Of a stretch of DNA of 52,399 bases, positions 3,863 through 29,509 are shown piece by piece. Made by a program: the position numbers and the translations under genes. The DNA is taken from positions 1-52,399 of the forward strand of contig DATDME010000098.1 in NCBI GenBank assembly GCA_036518915.1, written 5' to 3'. The notes beneath the pieces are model-generated. The model had not been told where the DNA came from. It saw nothing but the letters and a program-made list of their open reading frames with translations, and did no database searches. Origin of the DNA: Candidatus Saccharimonadia bacterium. GTDB taxonomy: Bacteria; Patescibacteriota; Saccharimonadia; UBA4664. Position 1 is the first letter of the stretch. Each line of letters starts with the position of its first letter.

Positions 3863-6229
3863 TTGGATCCGAATGAAAACTTACAACCCCAACCGCAGCC
3901 AAGACGGCCGCGGCCACAAGCGCCTAAGCCGAGCGTAAATCCGGCCGGCGCCGGTAACAATTTGAGCAATAATTTGGCCGGCAACGAGCCCCGTATTCAA
4001 ATGCCGCCCAAAAATACCCCGCCGAAAGCGCCGAGCGCGCCCGGTTTGCCGGCTGAGCGGCCGGCGGGCCGGCCGATGGCCGCGCAGCGGCCGGTCGGTG
4101 CTCAGGGCGGGGCGACGGTGCAGCGGCCAGTGCCGTCCGATCGGCGGCCGGTGCAAACGCCGCGTCCGGCCCAGCCGGCGCGGGTGATTGGGGCGGCTAG
4201 TATGGGCCGTCCGCAGCCGCCGGCGGGTGCGATGGCGCCGAAGAGCGTGCAGCAAGCCGCTAAAGCTCAACAGCAGCGCCCGCTTAAGAGCGGTGCGACA
4301 ATGCAGGGCGCCGCGCAAGGCCAGCAAGGTCCTGCGCGTAGCCAAAACGGCCAGCAGCCTTCTGAGCGCACCGTGAGCGGTGCGATGAGCCGTGAGCGCC
4401 GCCGTCTTGTACAGCAGCAGCCGTCACACACCGATTTGGTGCCGTCACTGGACACCATGCCGGTCAACAAGAGCGAATTTAACGGTTTTGCTGGCGCCCA
4501 GCAGTCTAAGAAGGGCCCAGCCGGCCAGCAGCGCCGGGTGAACTACACCGAGCGTGTACCTACTGTGCGGGTCATGCCGCTGGGCGGTCTCGGCGAAATT
4601 GGTAAGAACATGATGGCGGTGGAATGCGGTCAGGATATCGTCATCCTCGATATGGGCTTTGCCTTTCCAGACAAAAACCAGCCGGGTGTCGACTACATCA
4701 TCCCCGACACCACCTACCTTGAGAAAAACAAGCACAAGGTGCGGGCAATTATCATCACCCACGGTCACATGGACCACATTGGGGCGGCCGGGTACATTAT
4801 CCCGAAGTTCCCGGTGCCAATTTACGGTTCGCGGTTGTCGCTGGGTATGGTAGCTAAGCAAATTGAAGAGTTTAAGATTCAAACCCCGAAATTTGTGGTG
4901 CTTGACCCCGATAAGGGCGAGCGAGTGCAACTTGGCCAATCATTCAACCTGGAGCTGGTGCGGGTGAATCACACCATTTCCGATTCGACCGCGGCCGTAT
5001 TGCGGACGCCCGCGGGTATCTTGATTGACACCGGTGACTGGCGCCTGGACCCCACGCCGCTCAACGGCCAGGTGACCAATATGGACCGTTTTCGCCAGTT
5101 GGGCGACGAGGGCGTGTTGTTGCTCATGAGTGATTCAACTTCTTGTGACCAGGCTGGGCGCGGTGGCACTGAACAAAGTATTGTTCCAGTGATCGACGAC
5201 CTGTTTGGACGTGCCAACGGCCGCATCATTATTTCGGCTTTCTCAAGCTCAATTACGCGTATGCAGTTAATTGTGGATGCCACACATAAGGCCGGCCGCA
5301 AGCTGGCGCTGGTGGGACGGTCAGTGCTCTCGAACATCGAGCTGTGCGTGCGCATGGGCTATATTAAGATCCCGGCTGGTTTGGTGGTGAAAGTGCAAGA
5401 CATAACCAGTTTGCCCGATAGTCAGGTGGTGGTGTTGTGCACTGGCTCGCAGGGTGAGGAGAATTCAGCGCTGGTGCGCATGAGTACTGGTGACCATCAG
5501 AACATTAAGATTAAGCCGGGTGACACGATTATTCTGTCGTCAAGTGTGATTCCGGGCAATGAGGTGTCGGTGGTGACGCTGATTGACAACCTGATGCGCG
5601 AAGGTGCCGTGGTGTACGCTCGGTCGACGGCGGCGCTCAAGGGCCACGGGCCGGTGCACGTGGGCGGCCATGCTTACCAGGAAGACACGGCGGACATGGT
5701 TCAAGCCGTGCGCCCGAAGTATTACATGCCGATCCACGGCGAGTTTCACCACTTGGTGTACAACGCCGAAATTGCTGTACAGAATGGTGTGCCAAAGGAA
5801 AACATTTTCGTGATGGATAACGGTGACTGCCTGGAGCTGACGGCCAATAGCGCGCAGAAAGTGGCGCGTATCCCCGCCGGTGTAGTGATGATTGACGGCG
5901 CCGGAGTAGGGGACGTTGAGGGCGTAGTGCTGCGCGACCGTATCGCCATGGCTAACGATGGTGTGTTCATGATCGTGGCCACCGTTTCGCGCAAGACCGG
6001 CAAGCTCATCTCCAGCCCCGATATTATCTCCCGCGGCTTCATTTACATGAAGGAGAACGAAGACCTGATCAACCGGGCGCGGGCGGAGGTGCGGCGGCTG
6101 TTTGAGAAGCGCGCGCCGCAGGAAGACTGGACGAAGTTCAAGTTGAAACTGCGTGACGAAATTGGCGACATTTTGTATGCAAAGACCAAGCGGAACCCCA
6201 TGGTGCTGCCGGTGGTGAACGAGGTTTAG
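3863..6229 (+). CDS. rnj: Ribonuclease J with a roughly 235-aa Pro/Gln/Ala-rich N-terminal extension
   Basis: 788 aa. Metallo-beta-lactamase HGHMDHIG motif and a beta-CASP-like region. The catalytic core begins near VRVMPLGGLGEIGKNMM. TTG start is preceded by SD aaaggaga. Confidence 0.9.
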   Translation: MDPNENLQPQPQPRRPRPQAPKPSVNPAGAGNNLSNNLAGNEPRIQMPPKNTPPKAPSAPGLPAERPAGRPMAAQRPVGAQGGATVQRPVPSDRRPVQTPRPAQPARVIGAASMGRPQPPAGAMAPKSVQQAAKAQQQRPLKSGATMQGAAQGQQGPARSQNGQQPSERTVSGAMSRERRRLVQQQPSHTDLVPSLDTMPVNKSEFNGFAGAQQSKKGPAGQQRRVNYTERVPTVRVMPLGGLGEIGKNMMAVECGQDIVILDMGFAFPDKNQPGVDYIIPDTTYLEKNKHKVRAIIITHGHMDHIGAAGYIIPKFPVPIYGSRLSLGMVAKQIEEFKIQTPKFVVLDPDKGERVQLGQSFNLELVRVNHTISDSTAAVLRTPAGILIDTGDWRLDPTPLNGQVTNMDRFRQLGDEGVLLLMSDSTSCDQAGRGGTEQSIVPVIDDLFGRANGRIIISAFSSSITRMQLIVDATHKAGRKLALVGRSVLSNIELCVRMGYIKIPAGLVVKVQDITSLPDSQVVVLCTGSQGEENSALVRMSTGDHQNIKIKPGDTIILSSSVIPGNEVSVVTLIDNLMREGAVVYARSTAALKGHGPVHVGGHAYQEDTADMVQAVRPKYYMPIHGEFHHLVYNAEIAVQNGVPKENIFVMDNGDCLELTANSAQKVARIPAGVVMIDGAGVGDVEGVVLRDRIAMANDGVFMIVATVSRKTGKLISSPDIISRGFIYMKENEDLINRARAEVRRLFEKRAPQEDWTKFKLKLRDEIGDILYAKTKRNPMVLPVVNEV

Positions 6230-6424
6230 CCGATTTCGTGATTGAGCTAATGCCTACATAAAGGGCAGTATGCGAGAATAAGAACAACAAATGTGTTCAA
6301 GCAAAAGCATCTTGGTCTGAATGGGCTGGGCGCTTTTGCAGTTGTATAATGATCGCGAAAGGACATGATTATGCGGGATGTTAAAACGAGCGAGTAATGG
6401 GCGGGTGATGAATATTGGCCGCAA

Positions 6425-6765
6425 TTGAGTTTCGTAAATGTTAGTGGCGATGGGGCGGCGCAGGCTTTTCCGGAAGGGGCGAGCCAAGCTGATGGTGAGG
6501 CAATTGTGCAGACCTGGCAAAAGGCGGCCGTGCTTCGCGTGACCCCGGACATTCCAGTGTATTGGGGATTCATGGCTGGCGAAGCACAGGCCCAATTTTT
6601 GAACCAGCCAGCGCAAACGCAGGGTGGGCAGTTTGCGGTGCGGGGGGCCGTGATGACGTGAAGTTCTTCGTAATCGCGGCTGATTTGAAATCGCGGCCAA
6701 CGTTAGAGCTTGTAGAGGTGGTCGACTTGAATGAACCTAAATACCAGGATTTGCCGTTGTATTAA
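6425..6765 (+). pseudogene. Hypothetical small ORF whose frame breaks at a G6 run (6642-6647)
   Basis: Frame 1 (6425-6661) reads ..VTPDIPVYWGFMAGEAQAQFLNQPAQTQGGQFAVRG then stops. The adjacent frame continues DDVKFFVIAADLKSRPTLELVEVVDLNEPKYQDLPLY* to 6765. One extra G would fuse them (about 113 aa). No SD is visible and the start is uncertain. Confidence 0.3.
6599..6764 (+). repeat. 166-bp direct repeat, left copy
   Basis: Matches 7441-7606 (offset 842 bp). The first 133 nt are identical and the 3 mismatches all fall in the last 33 nt. Confidence 0.95.
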
Positions 6766-6826
6766 CTGGGTCGGGCGCTTTTTTGCGAGACTGTCTTATA
6801 ACCCATGAAGCAAGGATTACGTGTAA

Positions 6827-6856
6827 TTGTAATTGCTTGAGGGTATCCAATATACT
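6827..6856 (+). promoter_or_regulatory. Candidate sigma70-like promoter (TTGTAA-N18-TATACT) for the 35-aa peptide gene
   Basis: ttgtaa at 6827-6832 and tatact at 6851-6856, followed by SD aagagga (6875-6881) and ATG 6892. Confidence 0.4.
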
Positions 6857-6891
6857 GATACCTGGTAATTACGTAAGAGGATTAACTTCGC

Positions 6892-6999
6892 ATGGGTGTA
6901 ATAGAAACTTTTTACTTTGTTGTTGGTACTGCAGTATTTCTGGGAATCGTATTTGTTGCATATAAGCAGTATAAGAGGGGCAAAGCCAAAGCAGAGTAA
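6892..6999 (+). CDS. 35-aa single-TM peptide with basic C-terminal tail
   Basis: MGVIETFYFVVGTAVFLGIVFVAYKQYKRGKAKAE. Has its own promoter-like boxes, an SD 10 nt upstream and a perfect hairpin downstream. AT-rich codon usage unlike its neighbours. Below the 60-aa cutoff of the ORF track. Confidence 0.55.
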   Translation: MGVIETFYFVVGTAVFLGIVFVAYKQYKRGKAKAE

Positions 7000-7023
7000 A
7001 TAGATGATGCGACATAACGTAGT

Positions 7024-7053
7024 CGCCCTCCTTTGAATATTCAAAGGAGGGCG
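7024..7053. terminator. Perfect 30-nt palindrome between convergent cassette genes (bidirectional terminator-like)
   Basis: cgccctcctttgaatattcaaaggagggcg, followed by tttg on the + strand. It lies between the stop at 6999 (+) and the stop at 7088 (-). Confidence 0.6.
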
Positions 7054-7087
7054 TTTGCGACGTATCATTGGACATTGAAGCTGGTTG

Positions 7088-7436
7088 TTACTTCTGGCAT
7101 CTCCAGCCGAATGCGTTCCAGTACTTGATGATCGCTCGGCTTCCAGGGTGCGCGATACTGCAGTACTTCTGCATATCGATTCCCCCAAGGGTATTGATGG
7201 TCACGCCCAGAGGAATCGAGACGGTGTTGACATTGCAAAACCAGGAGCCTGGGTCAGTGAAGCTTGTGAAATCAGACCAGGCTTTGGGGTTGTTCCACGT
7301 GTAACGACAAGCCTGATTGGTGTCAATACCCCCATTCTGTTGAGGCGGATGCTGTCAGTGCCGGACCTTCGATAGTGATTCCCATCGCGAGACTCAAGGC
7401 TGCGACAGGTATCGCCGCGGTTCGAAGTTTCTTCAC
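7088..7436 (-). pseudogene. Putative secreted 4-Cys small protein, frame broken at a G5 run (C5 on + strand, 7329-7333)
   Basis: GTG 7436 gives VKKLRTAAIPVAALSLAMGITIEGPALTASASTEWGY*, which is signal-peptide-like with ASA. The next frame continues IDTNQACRYTWNNPKAWSDFTSFTDPGSWFCNVNTVSIPLGVTINTLGGIDMQKYCSIAHPGSRAIIKYWNAFGWRCQK* to TAA 7090-7088. The span is 349 nt, so removing one G gives a 115-aa ORF. Confidence 0.45.
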
Positions 7437-7440
7437 TCGA

Positions 7441-7606
7441 TTGAACCAGCCAGCGCAAACGCAGGGTGGGCAGTTTGCGGTGCGGGGGGCCGTGATGACG
7501 TGAAGTTCTTCGTAATCGCGGCTGATTTGAAATCGCGGCCAACGTTAGAGCTTGTAGAGGTGGTCGACTTGAATGCACCTAAATACCAGGGTTTGTCGTT
7601 GTATTA
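7441..7606 (+). repeat. 166-bp direct repeat, right copy
   Basis: See 6599-6764. Includes the same G6 run (7484-7489). Confidence 0.95.
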
Positions 7607-7640
7607 GTTTTGCGTGGTTTAAGCGGGTTAATAAGTAAAA

Positions 7641-7663
7641 CGCCCAGGCTGGCTGCCTGGGCG
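7641..7663 (-). terminator. Intrinsic terminator of the MFS gene
   Basis: cgcccagg-ctggctg-cctgggcg hairpin, followed on the minus strand by TTTT. Confidence 0.7.
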
Positions 7664-7672
7664 TAATGGTTT

Positions 7673-8956
7673 TCACCTCCGAAAGGATCGTCTGAGCCCC
7701 AGGTACACGGCGAGGGTGAGGGGCAGGAAAAGGGCGAGCTGCCAGCGGTACATGGCTTCAAAGCCCTGGCCTGATGTGAGCCAGAGCAGAAGCATTGGCG
7801 CCATGTAGAGCAATCGGTAGAGTGTGCTACCGAGGCTACCGATGGTGCTGCGGCGGTCGGCTGGGGTTTCGCGCTGGATGATTGGGCTGGATACCCGGCC
7901 GAACCAGCCGCGGGTGAGGCCCATGAGGCCAAACAGCCAGATAGTGCCGGCATTCACGCTCAGGCTAAAGGTGGCCATGGCGGTGAGAGCCATGACGGCG
8001 CCAATCGCGAAGAGCGTAGCGGGTTGGGTGCGGAGGTACCATTTGCGCAGCGGTTTGATGCTTGGTAGCCGCTTGCCAAGGCTGGTGAGCGCGAAGTTGC
8101 CGGCCCAAGCCGCGCCGATGACGGCGGTTGGTACATGGACCGCCACTAACATAGGCGAGAGCAGCCAGACGCTGGCGTGGGTGAACTCAGCTCCGATGGC
8201 TTGGGCGGCTAGGGCCCAAGCGAGACGATAAGGCGGACGGAAGGCTTCCCGCGTGATCCGCCACATATCTCTCCAGGCTTCCAGCGTAAGTTTCCAAACG
8301 CTGGTGCGCTCGCCGGTGCTGTTGCGGTTGGGGAGGAGCGGTCCAGTTTCGTACAGAAAGTACGTCGTGATCGCCCCAAGTACCGTGAGCGTCCCAGTGG
8401 CGGCCATACCGAGGCGCGCGCCGGCTAATCCGAGCCAGCCGCCGATGAGCATGCTGGGAATGTTGGTGGCCACCCGGATGAGTTCCATCTGGCCCTGGTG
8501 ATGGTCGTAGAGTCGGTGAGCAGTTTGCTCGTCGGATTCGTTTGGACGACGGTAGGCCGGAACGAGTCTCACTGTATACCACTTCACAAGTGAGCGGTCG
8601 GCGTCGCTGGAAGTAGCCATGCCGAGACCCAGGACGACCTCGGCAATTACCGCGACGGCGAAGTTGGGCGCCAGCGCGTACAGGAGCCAGCCACCGGTGG
8701 CAATGACGTCGCCAACCAGATTGGCCAGGCGCGGGCTGTAGCGGTCGGCCAGGTAGCCCGTTGGAACGTTGGCCATGATCATCACCGCCATGAAGATGAG
8801 CTGCAGGGCGACAATTTGGCCCCAGCTCATGCCCAGGCTGATCTGCCAAAACAGTGTGATGATCGGCATGTCGAAGATGGTGCTGGTGAGCGCGTTCTCG
8901 AGCTTAAGCAGCAGTAAGCTGCGCTCGAATGGTGGTTGGCGGAAGTAGTGAAGCAT
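7673..8956 (-). CDS. MFS-type transporter
   Basis: 427 aa and multi-TM throughout. An N-terminal GYLADRYSPR-like loop is typical of MFS. SD aaagga sits 8 nt before the ATG. Confidence 0.75.
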   Translation of the reverse strand: MLHYFRQPPFERSLLLLKLENALTSTIFDMPIITLFWQISLGMSWGQIVALQLIFMAVMIMANVPTGYLADRYSPRLANLVGDVIATGGWLLYALAPNFAVAVIAEVVLGLGMATSSDADRSLVKWYTVRLVPAYRRPNESDEQTAHRLYDHHQGQMELIRVATNIPSMLIGGWLGLAGARLGMAATGTLTVLGAITTYFLYETGPLLPNRNSTGERTSVWKLTLEAWRDMWRITREAFRPPYRLAWALAAQAIGAEFTHASVWLLSPMLVAVHVPTAVIGAAWAGNFALTSLGKRLPSIKPLRKWYLRTQPATLFAIGAVMALTAMATFSLSVNAGTIWLFGLMGLTRGWFGRVSSPIIQRETPADRRSTIGSLGSTLYRLLYMAPMLLLWLTSGQGFEAMYRWQLALFLPLTLAVYLGLRRSFRR

Positions 8957-9052
8957 GTCCGTGTCCTTTCAGACGGAGGTGTGAATGATCTCGCTCGCCG
9001 GGTTATCGGGAGCGATAGGGGACCTCTGACGGCCGGAAGGTAGTTGTATATA

Positions 9053-9078
9053 CGAAAAACCTCCGGGGTAAGTCGGAG
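9053..9078 (-). terminator. Intrinsic terminator (minus strand)
   Basis: cctccg-N8-cggagg stem followed by TTTTT on the minus strand. Confidence 0.6.
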
Positions 9079-9111
9079 GCTCGCTATCGATTCAGATGTA
9101 ACGCGGTAGAG

Positions 9112-9216
9112 TTACGAAATCATAGGAGCCACAGCTTGGACACGGGCAAACAGCACCAGCCCATGCATAGAATGGGCGGTCTTGGCGGTCCAAATTGTGG
9201 CTACTAAATGATTCAT
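9112..9216 (-). CDS. Candidate 34-aa ORF between the PRT-domain gene and its terminator
   Basis: MNHLVATIWTAKTAHSMHGLVLFARVQAVAPMIS, with a weak SD (aagg) and the terminator at 9053-9078 downstream. Speculative. Confidence 0.2.
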   Translation of the reverse strand: MNHLVATIWTAKTAHSMHGLVLFARVQAVAPMIS

Positions 9217-9266
9217 AGTTGCCTTACTGTAACATGCATGAGCGGTTTGGTCAAATTTCGGATTCA

Positions 9267-10472
9267 TTAGGCGGCTAGTTGCTCTGCGTCGTGCTTAAGG
9301 CGCTCAGTGATGAAGCGGGTGTGTTGTTCGCAGTGTTCGTGATAGGCTGTTTCAGAGGCATTTTCGGTGTGGGCCGGTAGTTGCTCTTCGCGGTAGGTCC
9401 GCGCGATCCGTGCGAGGAGCGGTTGCGAGACGTTTTGGCTCGCAGGGAACTCCCGCTCGCTTCGTAAATAGTCTAAACCGGTGTACAGCCAATTAAGGGT
9501 GTTACGAAAGCCATAATCGTTATCGCCATGGGCACCGGTGAGGGTAGCGTAGTTGTTGTTGTATCCACCCACACCTTCTTGATGGGGGTATTGATATGCG
9601 GCCTCAGTGTGAACGCCGTCAAAACCTTCGAGTAGCTGCTTGTCGGTGGCGCAAATCAAATTAACTGATACGGCTTCCGGGGGAACTCCGCTGGCTAGTA
9701 AGTTACCAACAGCATGCCTCATTTGTGAACCAGTGATTGACCAGTCATCGACTATGACTACGCCGTCTTGGGCAAACTTGGCGGCTTGTTGGTCTTCAAT
9801 TGGCTTTTCGAGGTTGAAGGTCACGAGGCGTTGTTCGAAATCTGGGTTAGTTTCATGCATATGTCGCGAGATTGATTCAAACACGTAGGCGGATGATCGC
9901 CCTGGTCGAATGCCGACGTATAGGGGGCCATTAGAATCAGCTAACCGGTCGGTTAGTGCCCGCACTATGGTTTCGGTGCCGTGCTGGTATTCTGGTTCGC
10001 CGATGAATCGGAGATCTTTTGCCATACGTTCAGCCGTTTCGCTGAATTCTTGGTAACGCTCTCCGCCATAGGTATCAAATAAGCTCTTTAGCTCATTGAG
10101 CCGGTCGTAGAGATTTTGGACGAGTTCGGCCTCAGAATACCCCACAAGATGATCGCTTGCATAATCTTCCCGCAGCTCGTGTGGCAGTTTTCCCTCGTCA
10201 GATAAGCGATCCAAGGCATCATTACGGACTACGAGCACGTTATGGGTCGAGCGTTTCAGGATCTCAACTGGATTTGTCGCCAGGTTTTCGAGGGTGGGCG
10301 CTGGCGCGCTACGTCGTAGCACTTCTTGCTCTGGCGAAACGTGCAGTTCAGCCACAGGCGATGGTTGTTCTTGCTTTTCGGCGGTGCGCCCAAAGCGCTC
10401 CAATAAGCCCACAATAGTCCTCGAGGTTGTCTTATGACCGATTGTACACGAAAAAATCACCTGATGCCTCAA
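9267..10472 (-). CDS. Phosphoribosyltransferase (type I PRT) domain protein with unrecognised N- and C-terminal regions
   Basis: 401 aa. PRPP-binding loop VVIVDDWSITGSQM. By eye, G+C and third-position bias are lower than in flanking genes. The first canonical start is TTG 10472, but the frame stays open 180 nt further upstream. Confidence 0.65.
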   Translation of the reverse strand: MRHQVIFSCTIGHKTTSRTIVGLLERFGRTAEKQEQPSPVAELHVSPEQEVLRRSAPAPTLENLATNPVEILKRSTHNVLVVRNDALDRLSDEGKLPHELREDYASDHLVGYSEAELVQNLYDRLNELKSLFDTYGGERYQEFSETAERMAKDLRFIGEPEYQHGTETIVRALTDRLADSNGPLYVGIRPGRSSAYVFESISRHMHETNPDFEQRLVTFNLEKPIEDQQAAKFAQDGVVIVDDWSITGSQMRHAVGNLLASGVPPEAVSVNLICATDKQLLEGFDGVHTEAAYQYPHQEGVGGYNNNYATLTGAHGDNDYGFRNTLNWLYTGLDYLRSEREFPASQNVSQPLLARIARTYREEQLPAHTENASETAYHEHCEQHTRFITERLKHDAEQLAA

Positions 10473-10747
10473 ATTATGATTGAGACCTCGGGCGGTGTCC
10501 GCTTTTTGCTCTCGATGGAAAGCTACTCGTATGCTTGCCTCACTGCCAGTGTCGATGAACGCGGCTGCGGTTTCGCGACCCCGGGCGTTGTCGTCGACCT
10601 CGACCTTGTAGGTCGCTGGGATTGAGGTGCGGCCGGGTGATCTGGCCGATCAGTCTCAGCGGCTGGCTGATAGTGCCTGGGAATCCCGGAGCCAGGTGCG
10701 TTTACAGGATTCTCAGTAACCGAACGTTCCCAATTACGCTTACGGTC

Positions 10748-10756
10748 TGATATACT
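10748..10756 (+). promoter_or_regulatory. Extended -10 box (TGATATACT) 8 nt upstream of the ftsK ATG
   Basis: tgatatact at 10748-10756 with ATG at 10765. No SD lies between them, which is consistent with a leaderless or near-leaderless mRNA. Confidence 0.4.
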
Positions 10757-10764
10757 AACGGCGT

Positions 10765-12996
10765 ATGGCTACCAAGAAACCGAACAAGCCAAAACCCCGG
10801 GCCACGACGACGCGACGGCGTAAGTCGAAGCCGGAGCCCATGCTGTCGCCGGAGCAGAAGCGCCAGATTGGCGGGGTGGTTTTTGCGGTTCTGGCGGCGC
10901 TGTTTTTGATTGGCGCATTTGGGGTGGGCGGTGATCTGGTGGTGTCGCTGTTTACGGCGGGTAAGTGGGCGATTGGCTTTGCGGCTTATCTGTTGCCGAT
11001 AACATTTGGCACGCTGGCCTGGATGCTATTTTTGCCCGAAGAGCGGACCGTGCGGTTCCTGAATTATCTTGGTCATATTGGGATTTTGGTGGCGCTGGCG
11101 GCGCTGTTCCACGTTGGGCTGGTACGGTCTGATGGCATGGCGGCGGCGCAACAGGGCTTGGGCGGCGGCATGACCGGTTATGCCGTGGCGTCGTGGATGC
11201 TGACGCTGCTGAACGTGCCGGCGTCGGCCATTATTTTATTGGCGGTGATTGCGATTTGTTTGATTTTAGCCACGAACGCCAATTTGGTGACGATTGGGCG
11301 GACCTTGGGCGCAATGTTTACGCGCGAGAAATCGGATGACGAGGACGAGAAGAAAGAGGGTTTGCCGGAGGTGCCGGCGCTGAAGGTGAACGATAATTCG
11401 GGCGCGGCGGCGCCGTCGGCGCTACCGGTGCGGGGCGAGCTCAATGTGGGGGCGATGCCGACCAAACGGCCCGCGCCGGCTCCGGCAGCGGAGCAGGATG
11501 CGTTGACCGCAAAATCTGACGAGCCGTGGGTGGCGCCGTCGTTGGATTTGTTGGCCACGGCGGGCTCAAAGGCGGATGCCGGTGACGTTAAGGCCAACGC
11601 GGGTATCATCCAGCAAACGCTTGAGAGTTTCGGCATTAACGTGACGATGGCCGAGGTGAACGTGGGCCCGACGGTCACGCAATATACCTTTACACCGCCG
11701 GCCGGCGTGAAACTGAATAAGATTACGGGTCTTGATACGAACCTGGCGCTGAGTCTGGCGGCGCATCCTATCCGGATTGAAGCGCCAATCCCCGGCAAGA
11801 GCGCCGTGGGCGTGGAAATCCCCAACAAGAGCATCGCCATGGTGCGGCTGCGGGGGGTGCTCGATTCGCCCGAGTGGAAGAAAGAAGAGGCGCCGCTGAC
11901 ATTTGCGCTGGGCCGGGACGTCAGTGGTGTGCCCATGACGGCCGATTTGGCGAAAATGCCGCACATGCTGATTGCTGGCGCCACGGGCTCGGGTAAGTCG
12001 GGTATGATCAACAGCTTGCTGACGAGTTTGCTGTACCGGAGTTCGCCGAATGAGTTGAAGCTCATTTTAGTGGACCCGAAGCGCGTGGAGTTGGGTCTTT
12101 ACAACGATATTCCGCACCTGCTGACGCCGGTGATTGTTGAGCCCGAGAAAACCATTTCAGCCTTGAAGTGGGCGGTGGCGGAGATGGAGCGGCGGTACAA
12201 GCTGCTGGCCGAGGTGGGCAACCGCAATATTATTGAGTACAACAAGGCGCATCCAGATGAGGCCATGCCCTACATTGTGGTGATTATTGACGAGATGGCG
12301 GATCTGATGGTACTGGCGGCGGCGGATGTGGAATCATTGATTGTGCGCTTGGCGCAGATGGCCCGCGCGATTGGCATTCACCTGGTGCTAGCGACGCAGC
12401 GGCCGAGCGTCGACGTAATCACGGGTATTATTAAGGCTAATATTCCGGCGCGGTTGGCGTTTAGTGTGGCGTCGCAGGTGGATTCGCGCACGATTTTGGA
12501 CCAGATGGGTGCCGAAAAATTGCTGGGTAAGGGCGATATGCTGTTCATGAGTCCTGATTTCATGAAGCCGCGCCGCATCCAGGGTGCGTGGGTCGATGAG
12601 AAGGAAGTGAAGGCGGTCACCGATTATCTGCGCAGCACGCGGGCGCCGGAGTACAACGACGAAGTATTGGCGCAGAAGGTCAGCATCGGCAAGGGTGGCG
12701 GTGGCGGTGGCGACGGTGACTTTGGCGAGCCGGATGACGACATGTTCGATGAAGCGGCCGAGGCGGTGTTCCGCGCGGGCAAGGCGTCGGCGAGCATGCT
12801 GCAGCGGCGGCTGCGGATTGGCTACGCCCGCGCGGCGCGTTTGCTTGATTTGCTCGAGGAGCGCGGCATCATTGGCCCGGCCGACGGCGCCCGGCCGCGC
12901 GACGTACTCATTAGCGACTTGAGCCAAATCCGCGGCGCGGCCGTGGGCGGCGGCGGCGATGACGTGATGCGGCCGGCCGAACCGTATGACGAATAG
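10765..12996 (+). CDS. ftsK: DNA translocase FtsK/SpoIIIE
   Basis: 743 aa. N-terminal TM segments, Walker A GATGSGKS, Walker B IVVIIDEMADL and a C-terminal gamma domain (MLQRRLRIGYARAARLLDLLEERGIIGP). Confidence 0.95.
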   Translation: MATKKPNKPKPRATTTRRRKSKPEPMLSPEQKRQIGGVVFAVLAALFLIGAFGVGGDLVVSLFTAGKWAIGFAAYLLPITFGTLAWMLFLPEERTVRFLNYLGHIGILVALAALFHVGLVRSDGMAAAQQGLGGGMTGYAVASWMLTLLNVPASAIILLAVIAICLILATNANLVTIGRTLGAMFTREKSDDEDEKKEGLPEVPALKVNDNSGAAAPSALPVRGELNVGAMPTKRPAPAPAAEQDALTAKSDEPWVAPSLDLLATAGSKADAGDVKANAGIIQQTLESFGINVTMAEVNVGPTVTQYTFTPPAGVKLNKITGLDTNLALSLAAHPIRIEAPIPGKSAVGVEIPNKSIAMVRLRGVLDSPEWKKEEAPLTFALGRDVSGVPMTADLAKMPHMLIAGATGSGKSGMINSLLTSLLYRSSPNELKLILVDPKRVELGLYNDIPHLLTPVIVEPEKTISALKWAVAEMERRYKLLAEVGNRNIIEYNKAHPDEAMPYIVVIIDEMADLMVLAAADVESLIVRLAQMARAIGIHLVLATQRPSVDVITGIIKANIPARLAFSVASQVDSRTILDQMGAEKLLGKGDMLFMSPDFMKPRRIQGAWVDEKEVKAVTDYLRSTRAPEYNDEVLAQKVSIGKGGGGGGDGDFGEPDDDMFDEAAEAVFRAGKASASMLQRRLRIGYARAARLLDLLEERGIIGPADGARPRDVLISDLSQIRGAAVGGGGDDVMRPAEPYDE

Positions 12997-19066: not shown

Positions 19067-19825
19067 GTGAAACGACGGCTGGATCAGCTACTCGTTGAGC
19101 GGGACCTGGCGCCCAGCCGGACGCAGGCGCAGGCATTAATTATGGCCGGACTGGTGTCGGCGGACGGCCGGCGCCTGGATAAGCCCGGCTTGATGGTGCC
19201 GGAGGATTTGGTGCTGCAGGTGAAGCATCAGCCGCGGTATGTCAGCCGCGCCGGCGAGAAGCTGGCGAGTGTGGTGGAGGCGCTGGGCTTGGAATTTGCC
19301 GGCCAAACCGTGCTGGATGTGGGCTCATCAACCGGCGGCTTCACAGACTTCGCGCTGCAGCAGGGCGCGGCCCGGGTGTACTGCGTGGACGTCGGCACCA
19401 ACCAGTTGGCCTTTAAGTTGCGTCAGGATGAACGGGTGGTGGTGATGGAGCGAACGGATATCCGCGCCGTGACGCTCGGTGATGGTGCAACTGGGGGTGT
19501 GGGTGCGGCGGCCGCTCTGCCCGCGGCGGTGGACATGGCGGTGATGGATGTGTCGTTTGTGTCACTGACGAAAGTACTTGAGGCCACTCGGGCTCTCGTA
19601 AAGCCGGGCGGAGTGATTGTGGCGATGGCTAAGCCGCAATTTGAGGCAGGTAAAGCGCTGGCAGATAAATATCATGGCGTGATACCGCTAGGAGCGGAGC
19701 GTGAGGCTGTGCTTGAAGAGCTACGACATTGGCTCCTGGAGCATGGCTTCACTATTCTGGCCGAGGCAAATTCGGGTTTGGCTGGGGCTGAGGGTAATGT
19801 GGAACGATTTTTTAAGCTCCTATAG
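19067..19825 (+). CDS. tlyA: TlyA-family rRNA 2'-O-methyltransferase
   Basis: S4-like N-terminus (KRRLDQLLVERDLAPSRTQAQALI) and SAM motif DVGSSTGGFTD. GTG 19067 with SD aggag is preferred over the ORF-track start at 19046. Confidence 0.85.
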   Translation: MKRRLDQLLVERDLAPSRTQAQALIMAGLVSADGRRLDKPGLMVPEDLVLQVKHQPRYVSRAGEKLASVVEALGLEFAGQTVLDVGSSTGGFTDFALQQGAARVYCVDVGTNQLAFKLRQDERVVVMERTDIRAVTLGDGATGGVGAAAALPAAVDMAVMDVSFVSLTKVLEATRALVKPGGVIVAMAKPQFEAGKALADKYHGVIPLGAEREAVLEELRHWLLEHGFTILAEANSGLAGAEGNVERFFKLL

Positions 19826-19914
19826 CCCCCGCAAAACAAAACGTGTCTTTTCGCACCGATGATTCTGAACTCACGAGCACGGTGAGGGCACACGTTTGTT
19901 TTGCGGGGGCTATA
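19820..19914. repeat. Palindromic intergenic element, copy B (compact, complete)
   Basis: Left arm tatagcccccgcaaaacaaaacgtgt (19821-19846) pairs with acacgtttgttttgcgggggctata (19890-19914), with one bulge. The core contains a ctcac-gagcacg-gtgag hairpin. It overlaps the tlyA stop codon and lies between convergent tlyA and ychF. Confidence 0.75.
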
Positions 19915-23716: not shown

Positions 23717-24760
23717 ATGGGACTGTTTGTTAAAGAGACTGAGTTTTTTGGGTTGGACATCGGCTCAACGGCCATTCGGCTGGTGCAGCTCCGGCGGGGC
23801 GGGGTACATCCGGCGCTGGTGGCGTACGGGTCGCTGCCAGTGCCGGCTAACTTGGCGATGAGCGACTCAAAAATCGATGAAGACAAGATTTCTGAGCTCA
23901 TCCGCCAGCTGTTGCGCGAAAACCGCGTGCCGTTGAAGAACGTGGTAGTGGGACTGCCGGGCAGCAAGGTGTTTGCCACGGTTATCACCACACCGAAGCT
24001 GGACCATACCCAGCTGGCCAAAGCGATTCGGTATCAAGCTGAGCAATATATTCCGATGGCAATTGACCAGGTGAAGCTGGACTGGGTTGTGGTCGACCAG
24101 AGCAAAGACGGCAAACAGCTGGAAGTGTTGCTGGTGGCGGCGCCGTCGTCGGCCGTTGATAAGTATGTGGATATTTTGGAGAGCGCTGGTTTGGAGCCAT
24201 TGGCGCTGGAGGCGAACGCGGTAGCCGTGGCCCGGTCGTTGGTGCCGCTGAGTACTATGGGCGTGGTGATTGTGGACTTTGGCGCGTTGGACAGCGATGT
24301 ATCGATTGTGCTGAATAACACGCCGCGTTTGATACGGTCGGTGCCGGTGGGCGGCCTGACGTTTGTGCGGTCAGTTTCGCAGAATCTGGGTCTTGATGAA
24401 GTGCAGGCTACGCAGTTTACCTACAAGTTCGGTCTGACGCAGTCTAAGTTGGAAGGTCAGGTATTTAAGGCCATTAAGCCGACGCTCGACAGCTTGGTGG
24501 CAGAAATTGATAAGTCTACCAAGTATTTCGTGGGCCGGTATCCGGATGTTAAGCTGGAAAAGTTGGTCATTACCGGCACGGCTTCCAGTTTGCCTGAGTT
24601 GGGTCCGTTCTTGGCGAACTCCACGGGTTTGCCAGTGGAGTTTGGTAATGCCTGGATTAACACATCGTACCCAGCTGGGTTGCAAGATAAACTGATGGGC
24701 TTGTCGGCGGAATACGCTGCGGCCGTGGGTCTGGCGGCCCGGGGAATGGTGGAGTCATGA
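23717..24760 (+). CDS. pilM: Type IV pilus assembly protein PilM (actin-like ATPase fold)
   Basis: 347 aa. N-terminal FGLDIGSTAIRLVQL. Position and length are typical and it overlaps pilN by 4 nt. Confidence 0.88.
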   Translation: MGLFVKETEFFGLDIGSTAIRLVQLRRGGVHPALVAYGSLPVPANLAMSDSKIDEDKISELIRQLLRENRVPLKNVVVGLPGSKVFATVITTPKLDHTQLAKAIRYQAEQYIPMAIDQVKLDWVVVDQSKDGKQLEVLLVAAPSSAVDKYVDILESAGLEPLALEANAVAVARSLVPLSTMGVVIVDFGALDSDVSIVLNNTPRLIRSVPVGGLTFVRSVSQNLGLDEVQATQFTYKFGLTQSKLEGQVFKAIKPTLDSLVAEIDKSTKYFVGRYPDVKLEKLVITGTASSLPELGPFLANSTGLPVEFGNAWINTSYPAGLQDKLMGLSAEYAAAVGLAARGMVES

Positions 24761-25347
24761 GCGTATTACTCAACTTACTACCAGACCTACGCCAGGCGAA
24801 GCTGCGTGAGCAACGTCGTCGGCAGATGGCGGTGGGTATATCGGTGCTGGTGTGGGCGGCATGCGCTGGTGTGGTGCTGGTACTGTTCCTGTTTTCCGCT
24901 GGCCAGGCGGTGCAGATCGCAGTTCATTCGCACAACATTGACGACACCAAGACCAAGCTGCAGAGTGTCTCTGGCTTAACTGGCGCTCTCACCGCCGCAC
25001 AGCACTTGAATGCCCTGCCAGAGTTGTATGCTAACCGGGTGCTGTTTACCAAGTTTTTTGGCGCATACCAAGACGCTGATCCGCTTGACGTGACGCTGAG
25101 TTCTCTGCACGTGAACGAGGCCAATGTCTTAACCGTTAACGGTGTGAGCAAGAGTTATGCCGCGCTGGCCAAGCTCCAGCGCGCGATGGAGCTCTCGAAC
25201 GTCTCGGTGGGCCAGCGTGCTAGTGCTCAAAACACACCGTACTTCTCGAATGTCTCGTTGGACAGCGCAGTTAACACTACCGGCAAGGGGATTAATTTTA
25301 CTCTCAGTGCCCAGGTATCTTCGGAGGCCCTTCATGCCAAGCAATAA
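24757..25347 (+). CDS. pilN: Type IV pilus assembly protein PilN
   Basis: 196 aa. LNLLPDLRQAKLREQRRRQ followed by a single TM, the canonical PilN N-terminus. Confidence 0.85.
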   Translation: MSVLLNLLPDLRQAKLREQRRRQMAVGISVLVWAACAGVVLVLFLFSAGQAVQIAVHSHNIDDTKTKLQSVSGLTGALTAAQHLNALPELYANRVLFTKFFGAYQDADPLDVTLSSLHVNEANVLTVNGVSKSYAALAKLQRAMELSNVSVGQRASAQNTPYFSNVSLDSAVNTTGKGINFTLSAQVSSEALHAKQ

Positions 25348-25993
25348 AGCTGCCAAGGCCGCTTTGGCCGGTAACAATTTAATTCTTGTGCTTATGCTGG
25401 TGTCATTTTTGGCGGTTGGTGCGGGTGTGTTGGTGGGCAAGTCACTGGTAGCCACCATCTTGCTTAACAAAAAGGTGCTGGATGCCAAAATCAAGGCGGA
25501 TAAGCAGCTGGCAACTGATTACGAAAACTCCAGTAAGCTCGTAGCGGAGTATGGTAATCTCGGTCCGCTGGCGCGACTGGTGAATGACTCATTGCCGACG
25601 ACCAAAGATATCCCGGGGATATTGGTGACATTGGAAAATATGGGTTTGCAGTCTGGTTTGACGATTAAGTCGGTGGCGCCGGTGACGGTGGGCTCAACGG
25701 CTAGTGCGGCGGGATCTACTGAAACATCCAACGCCAGCTCGACTACCGGGCCGGTGCCGGCCGAAAAGGTGGGCGTGCCCCAGCCGCAATCTTTTGTGGT
25801 CACGGTCGGCTTTAACGGTTCGTACACGGCGCTCCAAAAATTCTTGGCGGATGTGGAAACTTCGGTGCGGCCGATGCGGCTGGTCAATCTGCAACTGAGT
25901 GGTGGTGGTAACTCACTGGGTGGCCAAGCTGATATCCAAACGTACTACCAGGACAAGGCGAGCCTGCCGATTGAGACGGAGACCATCAAATGA
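25334..25993 (+). CDS. pilO: PilO-like pilus assembly protein
   Basis: ATG 25334 (MPSNKAAKAALAGNNLILVLMLVSFLAVGAG..), a single TM plus coiled coil. The ORF-track start at 25157 would overlap pilN by 190 nt and was rejected. Confidence 0.7.
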   Translation: MPSNKAAKAALAGNNLILVLMLVSFLAVGAGVLVGKSLVATILLNKKVLDAKIKADKQLATDYENSSKLVAEYGNLGPLARLVNDSLPTTKDIPGILVTLENMGLQSGLTIKSVAPVTVGSTASAAGSTETSNASSTTGPVPAEKVGVPQPQSFVVTVGFNGSYTALQKFLADVETSVRPMRLVNLQLSGGGNSLGGQADIQTYYQDKASLPIETETIK

Positions 25994-26253
25994 AAAAGCG
26001 TGACTTGGTTTACCTCTTGATTGCCGTGACGATATTCTTGGTCGCCGGGTACTTGGCCTACACACAGTTGATGCCTAAGTCATCGGCGAAGAGCAAGGGG
26101 ACCGTAGACGTTGAGCTGGTCGGTGTGGTGCCGAGCACGTTTGACGGCGCCGGCTTGCAGGCGATTAAAAACGAGGGCAGCGTAACCACCTTGGACTTTA
26201 ACTCGCAGCCAGACTTGTCGGGCTTGGGTAACAAAGCGCCATTTGGTCAGTGA
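25990..26253 (+). CDS. Small single-TM protein in the pilMNO operon (PilP-position)
   Basis: 87 aa. MKKRDLVYLLIAVTIFLVAGYLAY. ATGA overlap with the pilO-like gene. Confidence 0.6.
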   Translation: MKKRDLVYLLIAVTIFLVAGYLAYTQLMPKSSAKSKGTVDVELVGVVPSTFDGAGLQAIKNEGSVTTLDFNSQPDLSGLGNKAPFGQ

Positions 26254-26289
26254 GCTTGGTCGTGGCTAGCCTAGCGTCAGGAGGAACGC

Positions 26290-28062
26290 ATGCTATCAAT
26301 TGAGGGACAGCACCGGATTGAGCAGCTGCTGCTTGATGGCAAGCTGCTGGAGGCTGACGAACTCGAGGCGGCTAAGGTTGAGGCGCTTAAGGCCTCAAAA
26401 CCGCTGATTGCCTACATCGCGGAGCGTAACTTGGTGGGTGAAGAAGACCTCACCCGGTTGTCGGCCCAGGCTATGGGCGTGCCCTATGTTAACTTGACCG
26501 GCATGACGGTGGGTTCAGACATTACGAGGCTCCTGCCCCGTGATACTGCTCAAACCTACATGGCGGTGCCGTTTGGCATGCAAGAGGGCCGGTTGGCGGT
26601 GGGCATGCTTGATCCTACGAATATCCAGGCGGTGGACTTTTTATCGCGCAAGGTGGGGCACACCATTACGGTGTATTTGGCGTCGCGGGCCTCGATTGAC
26701 CACATTCTGGGCCAGTTCCAGCAGGATGTGGCGGCCGACGTGGCTTCGGCGATGGATGTCGCTAAAGTTGATGACCATCCTAAGGTAGAGGCCAAGGATG
26801 CCAAAGCCATGCAAAACTTGGTGCAGGACGCGCCAATTACGCGGGCCTTGAACGCAATTTTGGATTACGCGGCGCAATCGCATGCTTCAGATATCCACAT
26901 TGAGCCGCGCGAAAAAGAGCTGAAGATTCGCTACCGTATCGACGGTATTCTGCAGGAAACCATGACGCTGCCGAAGGGCATTGAGCCGGCGCTGATTTCG
27001 CGGATTAAGATTTTGAGCAACTTGCGGATTGATGAGCACCGGATTCCACAGGATGGTCAGTTTCAGATATCGTCGGGCGGTAATGAAATTGATTTGCGTA
27101 TTGCGATTAGTCCGGTGGTGTGGGGCGAGCAGGTGGTCATCCGGTTGCTCGATAAAGACTCCAGCATTTTGACGCTGGAAGCGTTGGGTTTCCGCGGCCG
27201 GGCTTTAAAGGTAATTTCTGAGGGTATTCATAAGCCGCATGGCATGACGCTCTCGACTGGTCCGACTGGCTCGGGTAAGAGTACCACGCTGTATGCCATC
27301 GTGCAGGAACTGAAAGATGTGTCGGTGAATATCGTCACTCTGGAAGACCCGGTGGAGTACAAGATGGACGGCATTAACCAGATTCAGGTTAACAATGATG
27401 TGGGCCTGACGTTTGCCAGCGGCTTGCGCAGTATTTTGCGCCAGGACCCCAACATTGTGCTGGTGGGGGAGATTCGTGATAAGGAAACGGCCGATTTGGC
27501 GGTGCAGGCGGCGCTGACGGGCCACGTGGTGCTATCGACGATTCACACCAACTCGGCGGCCGGCGTGCTGCCGCGTATGCTGGATATGCAAATTGAGCCA
27601 TTCTTGATTGCTTCCACGATTAATACGGTGATTGGCCAGCGCCTGGTGCGCAAGCTGTGCGAGAAGTGTAAGGAAACGTACGACACGAGCGATATCGAGA
27701 CGAAATCTATTATTGAGACAATGGGCAAAGTTTTGCCCAAGGACCGCACGGGACTCGAACAGGCCAAGAAGGACTTAGGTTATGAGCAGATCCCGTTGGG
27801 TAATCAAACGTCGTTCAAAATCTTTAAGGCGGTGGGCTGCAAAGCTTGCACCAAGGGCTACAAGGGCCGCATGGGTATTTACGAAGTGTTTGCCATGACG
27901 AATGAGATGGAGCGGCTCTTGAGCCAGCGCGCCACCACCTCCGAGGTGCAGGCGCAGGCGCAAAAGGACGGCATGCTAACCATGAAGCAAGACGGGTACT
28001 TGAAGGTGTTTAACGGGCTGACCACACTGGAAGAAGTGGCGCGTGTGGCGGCCGATTTCTAG
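26290..28062 (+). CDS. pilB: Type IV pilus extension ATPase PilB (GspE family)
   Basis: 590 aa. N-terminal GspII_E-like domain, Walker A GPTGSGKSTTL, Asp/His boxes and a tetracysteine-like CEKC..CKAC motif. SD aggagg. Confidence 0.95.
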   Translation: MLSIEGQHRIEQLLLDGKLLEADELEAAKVEALKASKPLIAYIAERNLVGEEDLTRLSAQAMGVPYVNLTGMTVGSDITRLLPRDTAQTYMAVPFGMQEGRLAVGMLDPTNIQAVDFLSRKVGHTITVYLASRASIDHILGQFQQDVAADVASAMDVAKVDDHPKVEAKDAKAMQNLVQDAPITRALNAILDYAAQSHASDIHIEPREKELKIRYRIDGILQETMTLPKGIEPALISRIKILSNLRIDEHRIPQDGQFQISSGGNEIDLRIAISPVVWGEQVVIRLLDKDSSILTLEALGFRGRALKVISEGIHKPHGMTLSTGPTGSGKSTTLYAIVQELKDVSVNIVTLEDPVEYKMDGINQIQVNNDVGLTFASGLRSILRQDPNIVLVGEIRDKETADLAVQAALTGHVVLSTIHTNSAAGVLPRMLDMQIEPFLIASTINTVIGQRLVRKLCEKCKETYDTSDIETKSIIETMGKVLPKDRTGLEQAKKDLGYEQIPLGNQTSFKIFKAVGCKACTKGYKGRMGIYEVFAMTNEMERLLSQRATTSEVQAQAQKDGMLTMKQDGYLKVFNGLTTLEEVARVAADF

Positions 28063-28077
28063 CCCTAAACGCAGTTC

Positions 28078-28104
28078 GGCCCGCCCCGAGGATCGGGGCG
28101 GGCC
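28078..28104. terminator. Perfect GC-rich hairpin after pilB
   Basis: ggcccgccccga-gga-tcggggcgggcc (12-bp stem). There is no adjacent T-run on either strand. Confidence 0.45.
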
Positions 28105-28162
28105 TGAGCGGTGCCGGTCTGGTGGACCGGATCGCCTGACGCTGGAAGCGCCGTGGGTTGTG

Positions 28163-28297
28163 CTACGGCTGCTCGACGTGCTCGGCCGCTTCGTGGGCGA
28201 TTCGCTCGGCCGTGGTCGACGGCTTCCGGTAGACGCGGGGGCCCTGGAGATTCTCCTTGACGTGCCGGACGACCTGTATGAGCTGGTGGTGGGACAT
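28163..28297 (-). CDS. Candidate 44-aa antisense ORF in the pilB-pilT spacer
   Basis: MSHHQLIQVVRHVKENLQGPRVYRKPSTTAERIAHEAAEHVEQP. GAGG lies immediately upstream, with short spacing. It is embedded in a very GC-rich stretch where chance ORFs are common. Confidence 0.2.
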   Translation of the reverse strand: MSHHQLIQVVRHVKENLQGPRVYRKPSTTAERIAHEAAEHVEQP

Positions 28298-28353
28298 GCC
28301 TCGCTCAGCCCAGCTTGTCTGGCATCACCTGGGTCATCGTAATCTAAACCGCC

Positions 28354-29500: not shown

Positions 29501-29509
29501 CAGGGCAGC

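Follow-up and report, generated by a model that had tools for sequence, protein, structure and literature searches.

How a pair of small genes comes to lie between two long direct repeats, and what such a pair might do, are the questions raised by a short segment of contig DATDME010000098.1 (assembly GCA_036518915.1), the 52,399-nucleotide stretch of Candidatus Saccharimonadia bacterium DNA that was analysed as a whole and is called the window here. In this segment, two 166 bp direct repeats (R1 and R2) bracket a cassette of 676 bp, which contains a gene for a single-pass membrane peptide of 35 residues and, facing it, a gene for a secreted protein with four cysteines (the 4-Cys protein). An earlier description of the sequence (the original prediction) had placed the repeats at 6599–6764 and 7441–7606, and these coordinates were reproduced. 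Horizontal acquisition of the two-gene module is the best reading of the locus. The fuller account that we favour, with moderate confidence, is that the module resembles an effector with a protective peptide, was inserted with duplication of a small host open reading frame (ORF), and is now decaying.

The Two Small Genes Form a Recurrent Pair

The gene for the membrane peptide (MGVIETFYFVVGTAVFLGIVFVAYKQYKRGKAKAE) is intact. It has a promoter-like site of its own and a Shine-Dalgarno sequence, AAGAGGA, 8–14 nucleotides upstream of its ATG, as had been claimed (Table 1). Its 5′ untranslated region shares the motif GGTAATTA with the peptide gene of a homolog locus, L041; the counterpart in the Streptomyces sviceus locus, L043, is AGTAATTT. 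The original prediction had treated the two small genes as a pair. ORFs were scored for a transmembrane helix followed by a basic tail, defined as a length of 25–50 residues, hydropathy averaging 2.5 or more over 15 residues, and three or more Lys or Arg among the last 12. The 52 kb window holds one such ORF only, the peptide gene itself, and 68.6 kb of sequence from ten homolog loci hold exactly four, all of them partners of 4-Cys genes. When distinct genomic contexts are counted, a partner micro-ORF immediately follows the 4-Cys gene in 7 of 12, or in 6 of 11 without the window, so the pairing stands.

The orientation of the partner varies. It is convergent in four contexts (the window, L041, L043, and L044) and co-directional in three (L051, L052, and L054). 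In the three convergent homolog loci, the peptide is found 58–67 nucleotides past the 4-Cys stop codon, across a GC-rich hairpin. In all cases the peptide gene is either located behind a hairpin or supplied with its own promoter-like site; L054 has both a terminator hairpin and a promoter-like site between the two genes. The peptide is uncalled in the gene calls shown for L041, L043 (the S. sviceus assembly), and L044, and in L051 and L054 the annotation examined has no gene call over it. Comparison of the peptides with Pfam and NCBIfam gave nothing above cutoff, only sub-threshold matches to unrelated transmembrane families. A secreted-protein gene, a hairpin, and an independently promoted peptide gene thus constitute a recurrent, conserved module that occurs in either orientation in distant genomes, among them Streptomyces and further metagenome contigs of high GC content. 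Because the orientation is not fixed, the link between the two genes is most simply at the protein level and not antisense.

In the window, the facing genes are separated by the perfect 30-nucleotide palindrome that had been reported between them. It folds far better than shuffled sequences on both strands (z = −5.9 and −5.0). As the palindrome lacks a U-tract, its role has to be read from its fold and position, and it is likely a bidirectional terminator shared by both genes. L041, L043, and L044 have GC-rich hairpins at the corresponding place, and a hairpin is therefore present in four of four convergent loci.

The 4-Cys Protein Belongs to a Family of Predicted Secreted Proteins

An exhaustive phmmer search against 1.84 billion representative sequences detected 95 relatives of the 4-Cys domain at E ≤ 1e-3, 15 of them at E ≤ 1e-10; the best has E = 5e-26 and 58% identity. 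Typical members are 100–150 residues long, with Sec-type signal peptides and four invariant cysteines (columns C16, C40, C65, and C86 of the family alignment). They share the motifs ACxYT…WxC…GG(V/I)DxQxYC…PGSRA…GWxC. With significant similarity over its full length, the four cysteines, and the motifs ACxYT, WxC, GG(V/I)DxQxYC, and GWxC, the window protein belongs to the family. A single relative carries a taxon name, the "hypothetical protein" WP_351988490 of S. sviceus, whose locus contains the actinobacterial markers Lsr2, DUF397, and DUF5753. Where sources give a name, no annotation beyond "hypothetical protein" was found, and none of the relatives has a Pfam domain over the 4-Cys region. 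In a word-indexed search, the repaired 115-residue window protein had no match and the family profile found four proteins only; this search missed relatives later caught by phmmer, and its negatives are weak. No member of the family was found in plasmid, phage, and viral-contig collections. For scanning of loci, the 20-sequence alignment was too diverse; a scan of metagenome contigs with a 7-sequence alignment (A2) produced three loci only, L049–L051.

With the family alignment, AlphaFold produced a confident model of the 4-Cys protein (predicted local distance difference test, pLDDT, 91.9; predicted template modelling score, pTM, 0.78). The model from the single sequence, with a pLDDT of 36, was useless. 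The confident model has no significant match among the folds of the Protein Data Bank (PDB), the best having E = 0.39 and a TM-score below 0.3, nor among the viral folds of BFVD, and the family profile matched no PDB sequence. The domain is built from a pair of related half-units, A and B, with two cysteines each. In longer relatives, A and B alternate in tandem arrays. In one of these (P0005), a GDSL lipase domain that scores above the Pfam cutoff precedes seven matched stretches; in another (P0022), three stretches come after an N-terminal region whose PLA2 matches are weak and stay below the cutoff. An SH3_3 domain is present in P0013, and lipoprotein (lipobox) signals in P0011 and P0036. 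From their sequences, the arrays of A/B half-repeats would behave like an extracellular binding repeat. Neither the 4-Cys family and its predicted fold nor the partner peptide, which is mostly unannotated, seems to have been described so far.

The relatives lie in surroundings of the kind usual for mobile or conflict regions. Their neighbors include IS3 and IS21 transposases, a tyrosine integrase, type I restriction–modification genes, OLD/AAA nucleases, and ImmA-HTH proteins with a relaxase and a coupling protein.

The 4-Cys Gene of the Window Is Frameshifted

The original prediction described two well-formed small genes, the larger encoding a secreted protein of roughly 115 residues. The four-cysteine domain and the signal-peptide-like N-terminus are both present, and the peptide gene is intact, but the 4-Cys gene is split over two frames. 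The interval 7088–7436 measures 349 nucleotides, which is not divisible by three, and is not a single ORF. The signal-peptide part (37 residues) terminates at a stop codon, and the four-cysteine part, in a different frame (7354→7091), has no in-frame start before the domain. By inspection, the N-terminus shows KKLR, a hydrophobic core of 17 residues, and ASA/S, and it aligns with the signal peptides of the relatives.

Removal of one base from the C5 run at 7329–7333 (G5 on the coding strand) restores a 115-residue ORF. The restored ORF aligns with the family across the signal/mature junction (STEWGIDTNQAC versus AADYGVDMNQAC), and the junction itself (…ASASTEWGIDTNQAC… versus …ASAADYGVDMNQAC… in relatives) contains no gap, which identifies the frameshift as a one-nucleotide insertion. 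It uncouples the signal peptide from the domain in the window copy. The rest of the window showed no split genes, and a real mutation is therefore favored over a systematic sequencing problem. Several overlapping ORF pairs were considered as signs of a frameshift-prone assembly and dropped, as they turned out to be distinct genes (PilN/PilO, NDK, PPIase/FMN reductase, L25) whose starts are over-extended.

The gene also lacks an upstream region. Its GTG start is only 4 nucleotides from R2, so the native upstream region is missing; relatives have 100–290 nucleotides of it. No promoter-like site was found for the gene on the minus strand, and a strong terminator (7640–7664) separates it from the transporter gene that lies upstream of it. 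Judged by these sequence features, the secreted-protein gene is probably a pseudogene in the window.

The Cassette Looks Foreign and Lies in a Variable Island

On composition, the original prediction had called the left half of the insert AT-rich. The GC content of 6765–7087 is 41%, compared with 57% for the whole window. However, the peptide half of the module is low in GC in other organisms as well (0.42–0.55, compared with 0.57–0.63 for their loci); low GC is therefore a property of the module and is uninformative about the GC content of the donor. On a scale that takes the 18 long genes of the window as the reference, both cassette genes have negative host codon-usage scores.

The cassette looks foreign in that its codon usage is atypical and relatives lack it at the corresponding site. 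Saccharimonadia relatives preserve the order PNPase-UDG-RNase J-[variable]-FtsK, and in them the segment between rnj and ftsK measures about 0.1–2.6 kb, versus 4.5 kb here. The RNase J of the window is 87% identical to a protein from an uncultured Saccharimonadales metagenome-assembled genome (MAG), and the next 14 matches also come from Saccharimonadia or Patescibacteria MAGs, which places the window in a high-GC Saccharimonadia (TM7) genome. Comparison of the relatives' rnj-ftsK segments with the window by blastn and tblastn revealed no cassette, no repeat, and no MFS transporter, and the cassette is missing from 15 related Saccharimonadia loci. As nothing is shared at this site, the cassette sits in a variable island. 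The locus thus combines absence from syntenic positions with atypical GC content and codon usage, as a horizontally acquired islet would.

The Direct Repeats Duplicate a Candidate Small Host Gene

R1 and R2 are the sole long direct repeat of the 52 kb window. They differ at three positions (136, 151, and 156 of the repeat), and their identity breaks off sharply at both ends. All three mismatches fall within the terminal 31 nucleotides (P = 0.012 under random placement), in agreement with the clustering at the distal end noted before. Sequence flanking the repeats has no similarity past the repeat ends by blastn or tblastx, and diverged paralogs around the repeats were for this reason dropped as an explanation.

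The repeat consists of the last 63 nucleotides of a candidate 78-residue host ORF and a candidate 35-residue ORF (distinct from the membrane peptide), and it ends at the second base of the stop codon of the latter. The GTG start of the 35-residue ORF overlaps the stop of the 78-residue ORF as GTGA. Their codon-usage scores, 0.25 per codon for the 78-residue ORF (6425–6661) and 0.28 per codon for the 35-residue ORF (6658–6765), are in each case the highest of the six frames and in the range of host genes. No homologs of either ORF were found in Pfam, NCBIfam, PADLOC, or PHROGs, or in a word-indexed protein search with the two concatenated; as a result, it is codon usage that speaks for their reality. 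On codon usage, minus-strand ORFs at 6247–6573, 6254–6700, 7201–7578, and 6817–7188 were dropped as coding. In effect, the duplicated segment is a whole tiny host gene with 59 nucleotides of upstream sequence, and the insert starts right after its stop codon. The three mismatches are all non-synonymous in the 35-residue ORF, a number too small for interpretation, and the R2 copy differs from the R1 copy by E26A, D31G, and P33S, all within the last 10 residues.

A structured RNA or an attachment site in the repeat was also considered. The repeat folds no better than shuffled sequences on either strand (z = 0.34 and 0.15), contains no inverted repeats, and reaches no Rfam family at the gathering score; two identical sub-threshold matches to S4-leader (E = 0.33) are at the level of chance. 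Lacking an above-threshold Rfam family and any excess folding stability, the idea was dropped.

Possible Functions of the Pair

In the account favored here, the secreted A+B protein would act on or bind a component of the cell envelope, as an extracellular binding or effector module. The membrane peptide, which would cross the membrane once with its basic tail on the cytoplasmic side and be expressed from a promoter of its own, could be the cognate protector or partner of the producer, like an immunity peptide; this part of the account, drawn by analogy, is tentative and falls short of an even chance. The secreted-protein gene would now be a pseudogene and the peptide gene still intact. An adjacent and independently expressed small membrane protein, as in bacteriocin and colicin pairs, is indeed found (7 of 12 contexts, with promoter-like sites and a hairpin). 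Several observations weigh against the account. No homology ties either protein to an activity in Pfam, NCBIfam, PADLOC, PHROGs, or the PDB, or in the fold searches including BFVD; antimicrobial activity could not be deduced from homology in these libraries, and the label of toxin or bacteriocin plus immunity, offered in the original prediction, is left without this support. Five of the 12 contexts (L042, L046, L047, L050, and L053) have no partner peptide, so the partnership is not obligatory. The peptides share an architecture and a loose YK-x-(Y/L)-K tail, and no alignable sequence.

Two other functions have to be compared with that of a protector. As the main variant, the peptide may be a membrane anchor, co-receptor, or secretion helper of the secreted protein, a role that would account for adjacency in either orientation and would suit a 4-Cys unit that acts as a binding repeat added to enzymes and lipoproteins and not as a stand-alone toxin. 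However, the peptides diverge too fast to align, which is commoner for immunity-type than for structural partners, and they have almost no extracellular residues with which to contact a secreted protein; we regard this role as unlikely, though worth keeping in view. A type I toxin-like peptide had also been proposed. In that case, the peptide would be a toxin restrained by the 3′ end of the convergent 4-Cys transcript or by an antisense RNA, and would stabilize the islet. The peptide does have the size and shape of type I toxins (35 residues, fewer than the 60 usual for this class, with one transmembrane helix and a charged basic tail), it is convergent with its neighbor across one shared hairpin in four loci, and it is intact here while the neighboring gene decays. 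Convergent 3′ overlap is a known design, as in txpA/RatA and bsrG/SR4 of Bacillus. The arrangement is nevertheless not a conserved antisense one. In L051, L052, and L054, the peptide gene is co-directional and downstream, where an antisense action on the 4-Cys messenger RNA is impossible, and in the convergent loci the stop codons are 58–88 nucleotides apart, leaving only the shared hairpin to overlap. Moreover, no peptide match reaches a Pfam or NCBIfam cutoff, and membership of one of the established toxin families (Hok, Ldr, TisB, Ibs, Fst, and others) is thus not supported. A type I unit therefore fits poorly with the three co-directional loci, finds no homology, and appears decidedly unlikely.

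Insertion and Origin of the Cassette

The repeat–insert–repeat layout is one in which nothing has been lost from the target, 166 bp has been duplicated, and there are no terminal inverted repeats. According to the favored account, the module would have landed in the hypervariable rnj-ftsK island directly after the stop codon of the small host ORF, in an event that duplicated 166 bp of host sequence, the whole 35-residue ORF plus 59 nucleotides upstream. This would be a recombination that duplicates its target, and the simplest route would be a single crossover of the Campbell type, in which the chromosome takes up a circular DNA that has its own, slightly diverged version of the 166 bp segment. 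Alternatively, the insertion may have been replicative, by template switching, or a long staggered break may have been filled in. Recombination between R1 and R2 would excise an 842 bp circle and restore the empty site, and mobility by this means, as suggested in the original prediction, is plausible. Homolog modules in L041, L043, and L044 have no flanking direct repeats, which indicates that the repeats arose with this insertion and do not belong to the module. The one-sided clustering of the mismatches suggests recombination between diverged alleles, or else partial or later gene conversion; it fits these better than random decay following an identical duplication.

On the other side, a simple Campbell crossover alone leaves the clustering unexplained. 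The searches yielded no donor: at the nucleotide level no relative is more than about 66% similar, and the similar stretch covers only the sequence for the mature protein, 7091–7330. A lone sequencing error in the homopolymer could account for the frameshift. In metagenome and viral contigs, no exact match to a 23-mer of the repeat was found, and exact look-ups of the MFS protein, the 35-residue peptide, and the UDG of the window had no match and provided no site for comparison with a sister strain. As neither an empty site nor a second strain was found, the mechanism is argued from the structure of the locus.

If there had been no recent acquisition, the locus would be an old tandem duplication of the host ORF, the pair being old, lineage-specific DNA and the copies being kept alike by gene conversion. 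Mismatches at one end only, as beside a conversion tract, a repeat boundary that coincides with the stop codon so that a whole small gene is duplicated, and the lack of a close donor are all in keeping with this. The codon usage of the cassette, unlike that of the host, the absence of anything similar from any related locus, and the exact fit of the cassette between the two copies, suggestive of a single event, make it improbable. The layout itself could also be false. A mis-threaded mixture of strains or a small circular or tandem molecule might have been assembled as an insertion, with the frameshift as a homopolymer error; the genome is apparently from an uncultured lineage with no identical sequence in public collections for a cross-check, and the frameshift does lie in a five-base homopolymer. 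Yet the copies differ at three positions, each tied to its own flank, which a collapsed repeat would not give, both types of junction still need a real repeat–insert–repeat or a circular repeat–insert molecule, and no other gene of the window is frameshifted. An artefact is on this evidence highly improbable.

A site-specific mobile cassette, integron-like or similar, with the 166 bp repeats as its recombination sites, would likewise present a unit of ∼0.7–0.8 kb between repeated sequences and one gene without its own promoter. The repeats, however, contain no hairpin or imperfect palindrome of the kind found in attC and no inverted repeats, as described above; they resemble coding sequence of the host and have no further copy in the window, and homolog loci are without flanking repeats. 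No IntI is encoded within 5 kb, where the genes are those for RNase J, the MFS transporter, a PRTase-like protein, and FtsK. These are the same neighbors that bear out the remark that no integrase is present, as none was found within several kb. Such a cassette is very hard to credit. Insertion of an acquired module with duplication of its target is retained as the account that we favor.

With regard to the donor, Saccharibacteria live attached to Actinobacteria hosts and are naturally competent. The type IV pilus genes of the window are compatible with DNA uptake and are not evidence for it. In a wider proposal, the 4-Cys protein and its micro-peptide would be a new and widespread effector/protector (or surface-binding) system of soil Actinobacteria, acquired by a Saccharimonadia epibiont from a host-like donor, and the 166 bp duplication would be the footprint left when foreign DNA was integrated beside a small ORF, by a duplicative single crossover or by template switching, in a naturally competent, recombinase-poor bacterium of the candidate phyla radiation (CPR). 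Taken as a whole, this chain is speculative and its chance small. In the literature, Saccharibacteria figure as epibionts or parasites that depend on other bacteria as hosts and that have likely received foreign genes, for example those of the arginine deiminase system (PMC8764695).

Comparison with Known Systems

The locus resembles several known arrangements without coinciding with any of them. Pore-forming colicin operons, which a 2007 review by Cascales et al. is said to describe with the immunity gene on the opposite strand, likewise place a gene for an exported protein opposite a gene for a small membrane protein with its own promoter, on mobile or accessory DNA. In contrast to colicins, there is here no similarity of sequence or fold, no lysis gene, and no SOS box; the peptides have one transmembrane helix and 28–47 residues, whereas colicin immunity proteins have three to four helices and 11–18 kDa, and in three loci the partner is co-directional. 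AS-48 D1 and gassericin GaaI are small cationic transmembrane immunity peptides of circular or leaderless bacteriocins, and like the partner here they are hydrophobic, cationic peptides of ∼30–55 residues encoded beside the gene for a small secreted protein. They are, however, co-transcribed in clusters of several biosynthesis genes with ATP-binding cassette (ABC) transporters, which are absent here, and there is no homology. Type I toxin–antitoxin systems with convergent 3′ overlap (txpA/RatA, bsrG/SR4, and Fst/RNAII) share with the locus a tiny transmembrane peptide with a charged tail and convergence around a bidirectional hairpin. They differ in that the facing gene here is protein-coding, the orientation is not conserved over the family, and no peptide reaches a Pfam or NCBIfam cutoff, type I toxin models included.

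The secreted protein recalls the disulfide proteins of Streptomyces (tendamistat, SSI, SMPI, and AFP1), with a mature protein of 80–90 residues, two presumed disulfides, an apparent Sec signal, and a distribution in actinomycetes. It differs from them in matching no Pfam family, PDB sequence, or PDB fold, and in its A+B half-repeat domain, which is found in long tandem arrays as well. Campbell-type or duplication insertions, like the present one, have the insert between direct homologous copies with the target intact and are reversible by recombination; unlike them, no circular donor, replicon, or recombinase was identified here, and the unit of 842 bp is far below the size of known integrative elements. 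By analogy, then, the remaining resemblance would be functional to effector/immunity pairs and structural to Campbell-type insertion.

A small accessory islet with an effector and a partner, obtained by horizontal gene transfer, is a known kind of element; the family, the fold, and the partner peptide are apparently the new part. The importance of the locus for this organism is probably small, because the local copy looks broken and is likely a decaying remnant. Its wider interest is that it flags an undescribed secreted family with a confident predicted fold matching no solved structure, and a conserved micro-ORF partner missed by gene callers in three of the six other loci that carry it. Genes passed between Saccharibacteria and Actinobacteria are candidates for molecules of attachment, killing, or protection, and the repeat–insert–repeat layout provides a clean natural example for the entry of foreign DNA into a CPR genome without an integrase at the site.

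Features of the Window

The coordinates of the features are collected in Table 1.

Table 1. Features of the Window and Partner Peptides of the Homolog Loci (Positions of the Latter in Their Own Loci)
Feature	Sequence	Position	Strand	Remark
R1	window	6599–6764	+	166 nt; 3′ end of 78-residue ORF plus 35-residue ORF 6658–6765 (last base of its stop excluded)
R2	window	7441–7606	+	166 nt; second copy of 35-residue ORF, 7500–7607
78-residue candidate small host ORF	window	6425–6661	+	last 63 nt are the start of the repeat; by codon usage
35-residue candidate host ORF	window	6658–6765 (R1), 7500–7607 (R2)	+	by codon usage
Inserted cassette with two-gene module	window	6765–7440		676 bp; bounded exactly by R1 and R2
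Promoter-like site TTGTAA-N18-TATACT	window	6827–6856	+	for peptide gene
Membrane peptide, 35 residues, one transmembrane helix, basic tail	window	6892–6999	+	intact gene
Perfect 30-nt palindrome	window	7024–7053		hairpin between the two convergent genes; imperfect extension ∼7003–7069
Secreted 4-Cys protein gene, frameshifted	window	7088–7436	−	signal peptide 7436→7323; mature domain 7330→7091
C5 run (G5 on coding strand) with 1-nt insertion	window	7329–7333		breaks the 4-Cys frame
Hairpin terminator	window	7640–7664		between R2 and 3′ end of MFS gene
rnj (RNase J)	window	3863–6229		left border of island
Variable island	window	6230–10764		4.5 kb between rnj and ftsK; cassette, MFS transporter, and PRTase-like ORF
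MFS transporter	window	7673–8956	−	Pfam
PRTase-like ORF, 401 residues	window	9267–10472	−	weak matches only
ftsK	window	10765–12996		right border of island
Convergent partner, 28 residues, MIISLLFLGGVTLTAIVVFAIVKHLKVK	L041	6445–6531	−	4-Cys protein 58% identical to that of window
Convergent partner, 29 residues, MAVMAMMLAALALTVAVVVGIYKYLKRTR	L043 (S. sviceus)	4440–4529	−	4-Cys protein 53% identical to that of window
Convergent partner, 36 residues	L044	4430–4540	−	4-Cys protein 47% identical to that of window
Co-directional partner, 47 residues	L051			just downstream of 4-Cys gene
Co-directional partner, 44 residues	L052			just downstream of 4-Cys gene; gene-called
Co-directional partner, 47 residues	L054			tail …ETYQKRAKGG, versus …YKQYKRGKAK in window

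Several further observations concern the neighborhood of the cassette. The 401-residue ORF of the island has weak matches to PRTase-CE of Pfam (E = 0.21) and to PRTase_III-A of PADLOC (E = 0.0012) and, on these sequence matches, may be a conflict- or defense-related gene. RNase J carries an N-terminal extension of ∼230 residues rich in Pro, Gln, and Ala (window 3863–4550, with a local GC content of up to 77%), and conservation of its catalytic part among relatives sets in at about residue 230. The type IV pilus cluster extends from 24757 to 35677 and encodes PilN, PilO, and a protein with a prepilin-type N-methylation motif, together with two P-loop ATPase segments that are paralogs of each other, at 27255 and 28831. 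At 1–140 and 19820–19914, the window has a small repeated element (GAATCATCGGTGCGAAAAGACACGTTTTGTTTTG…); these two sites are 19.7 kb apart and have the rnj-ftsK island in the region between them. Its parts are related in both senses: 95–140 and 19820–19865 are inverted copies, 93% complementary over 46 nucleotides, 1–29 and 19861–19889 are inverted at 97%, and 114–139 and 19890–19914 are direct copies at 85%.

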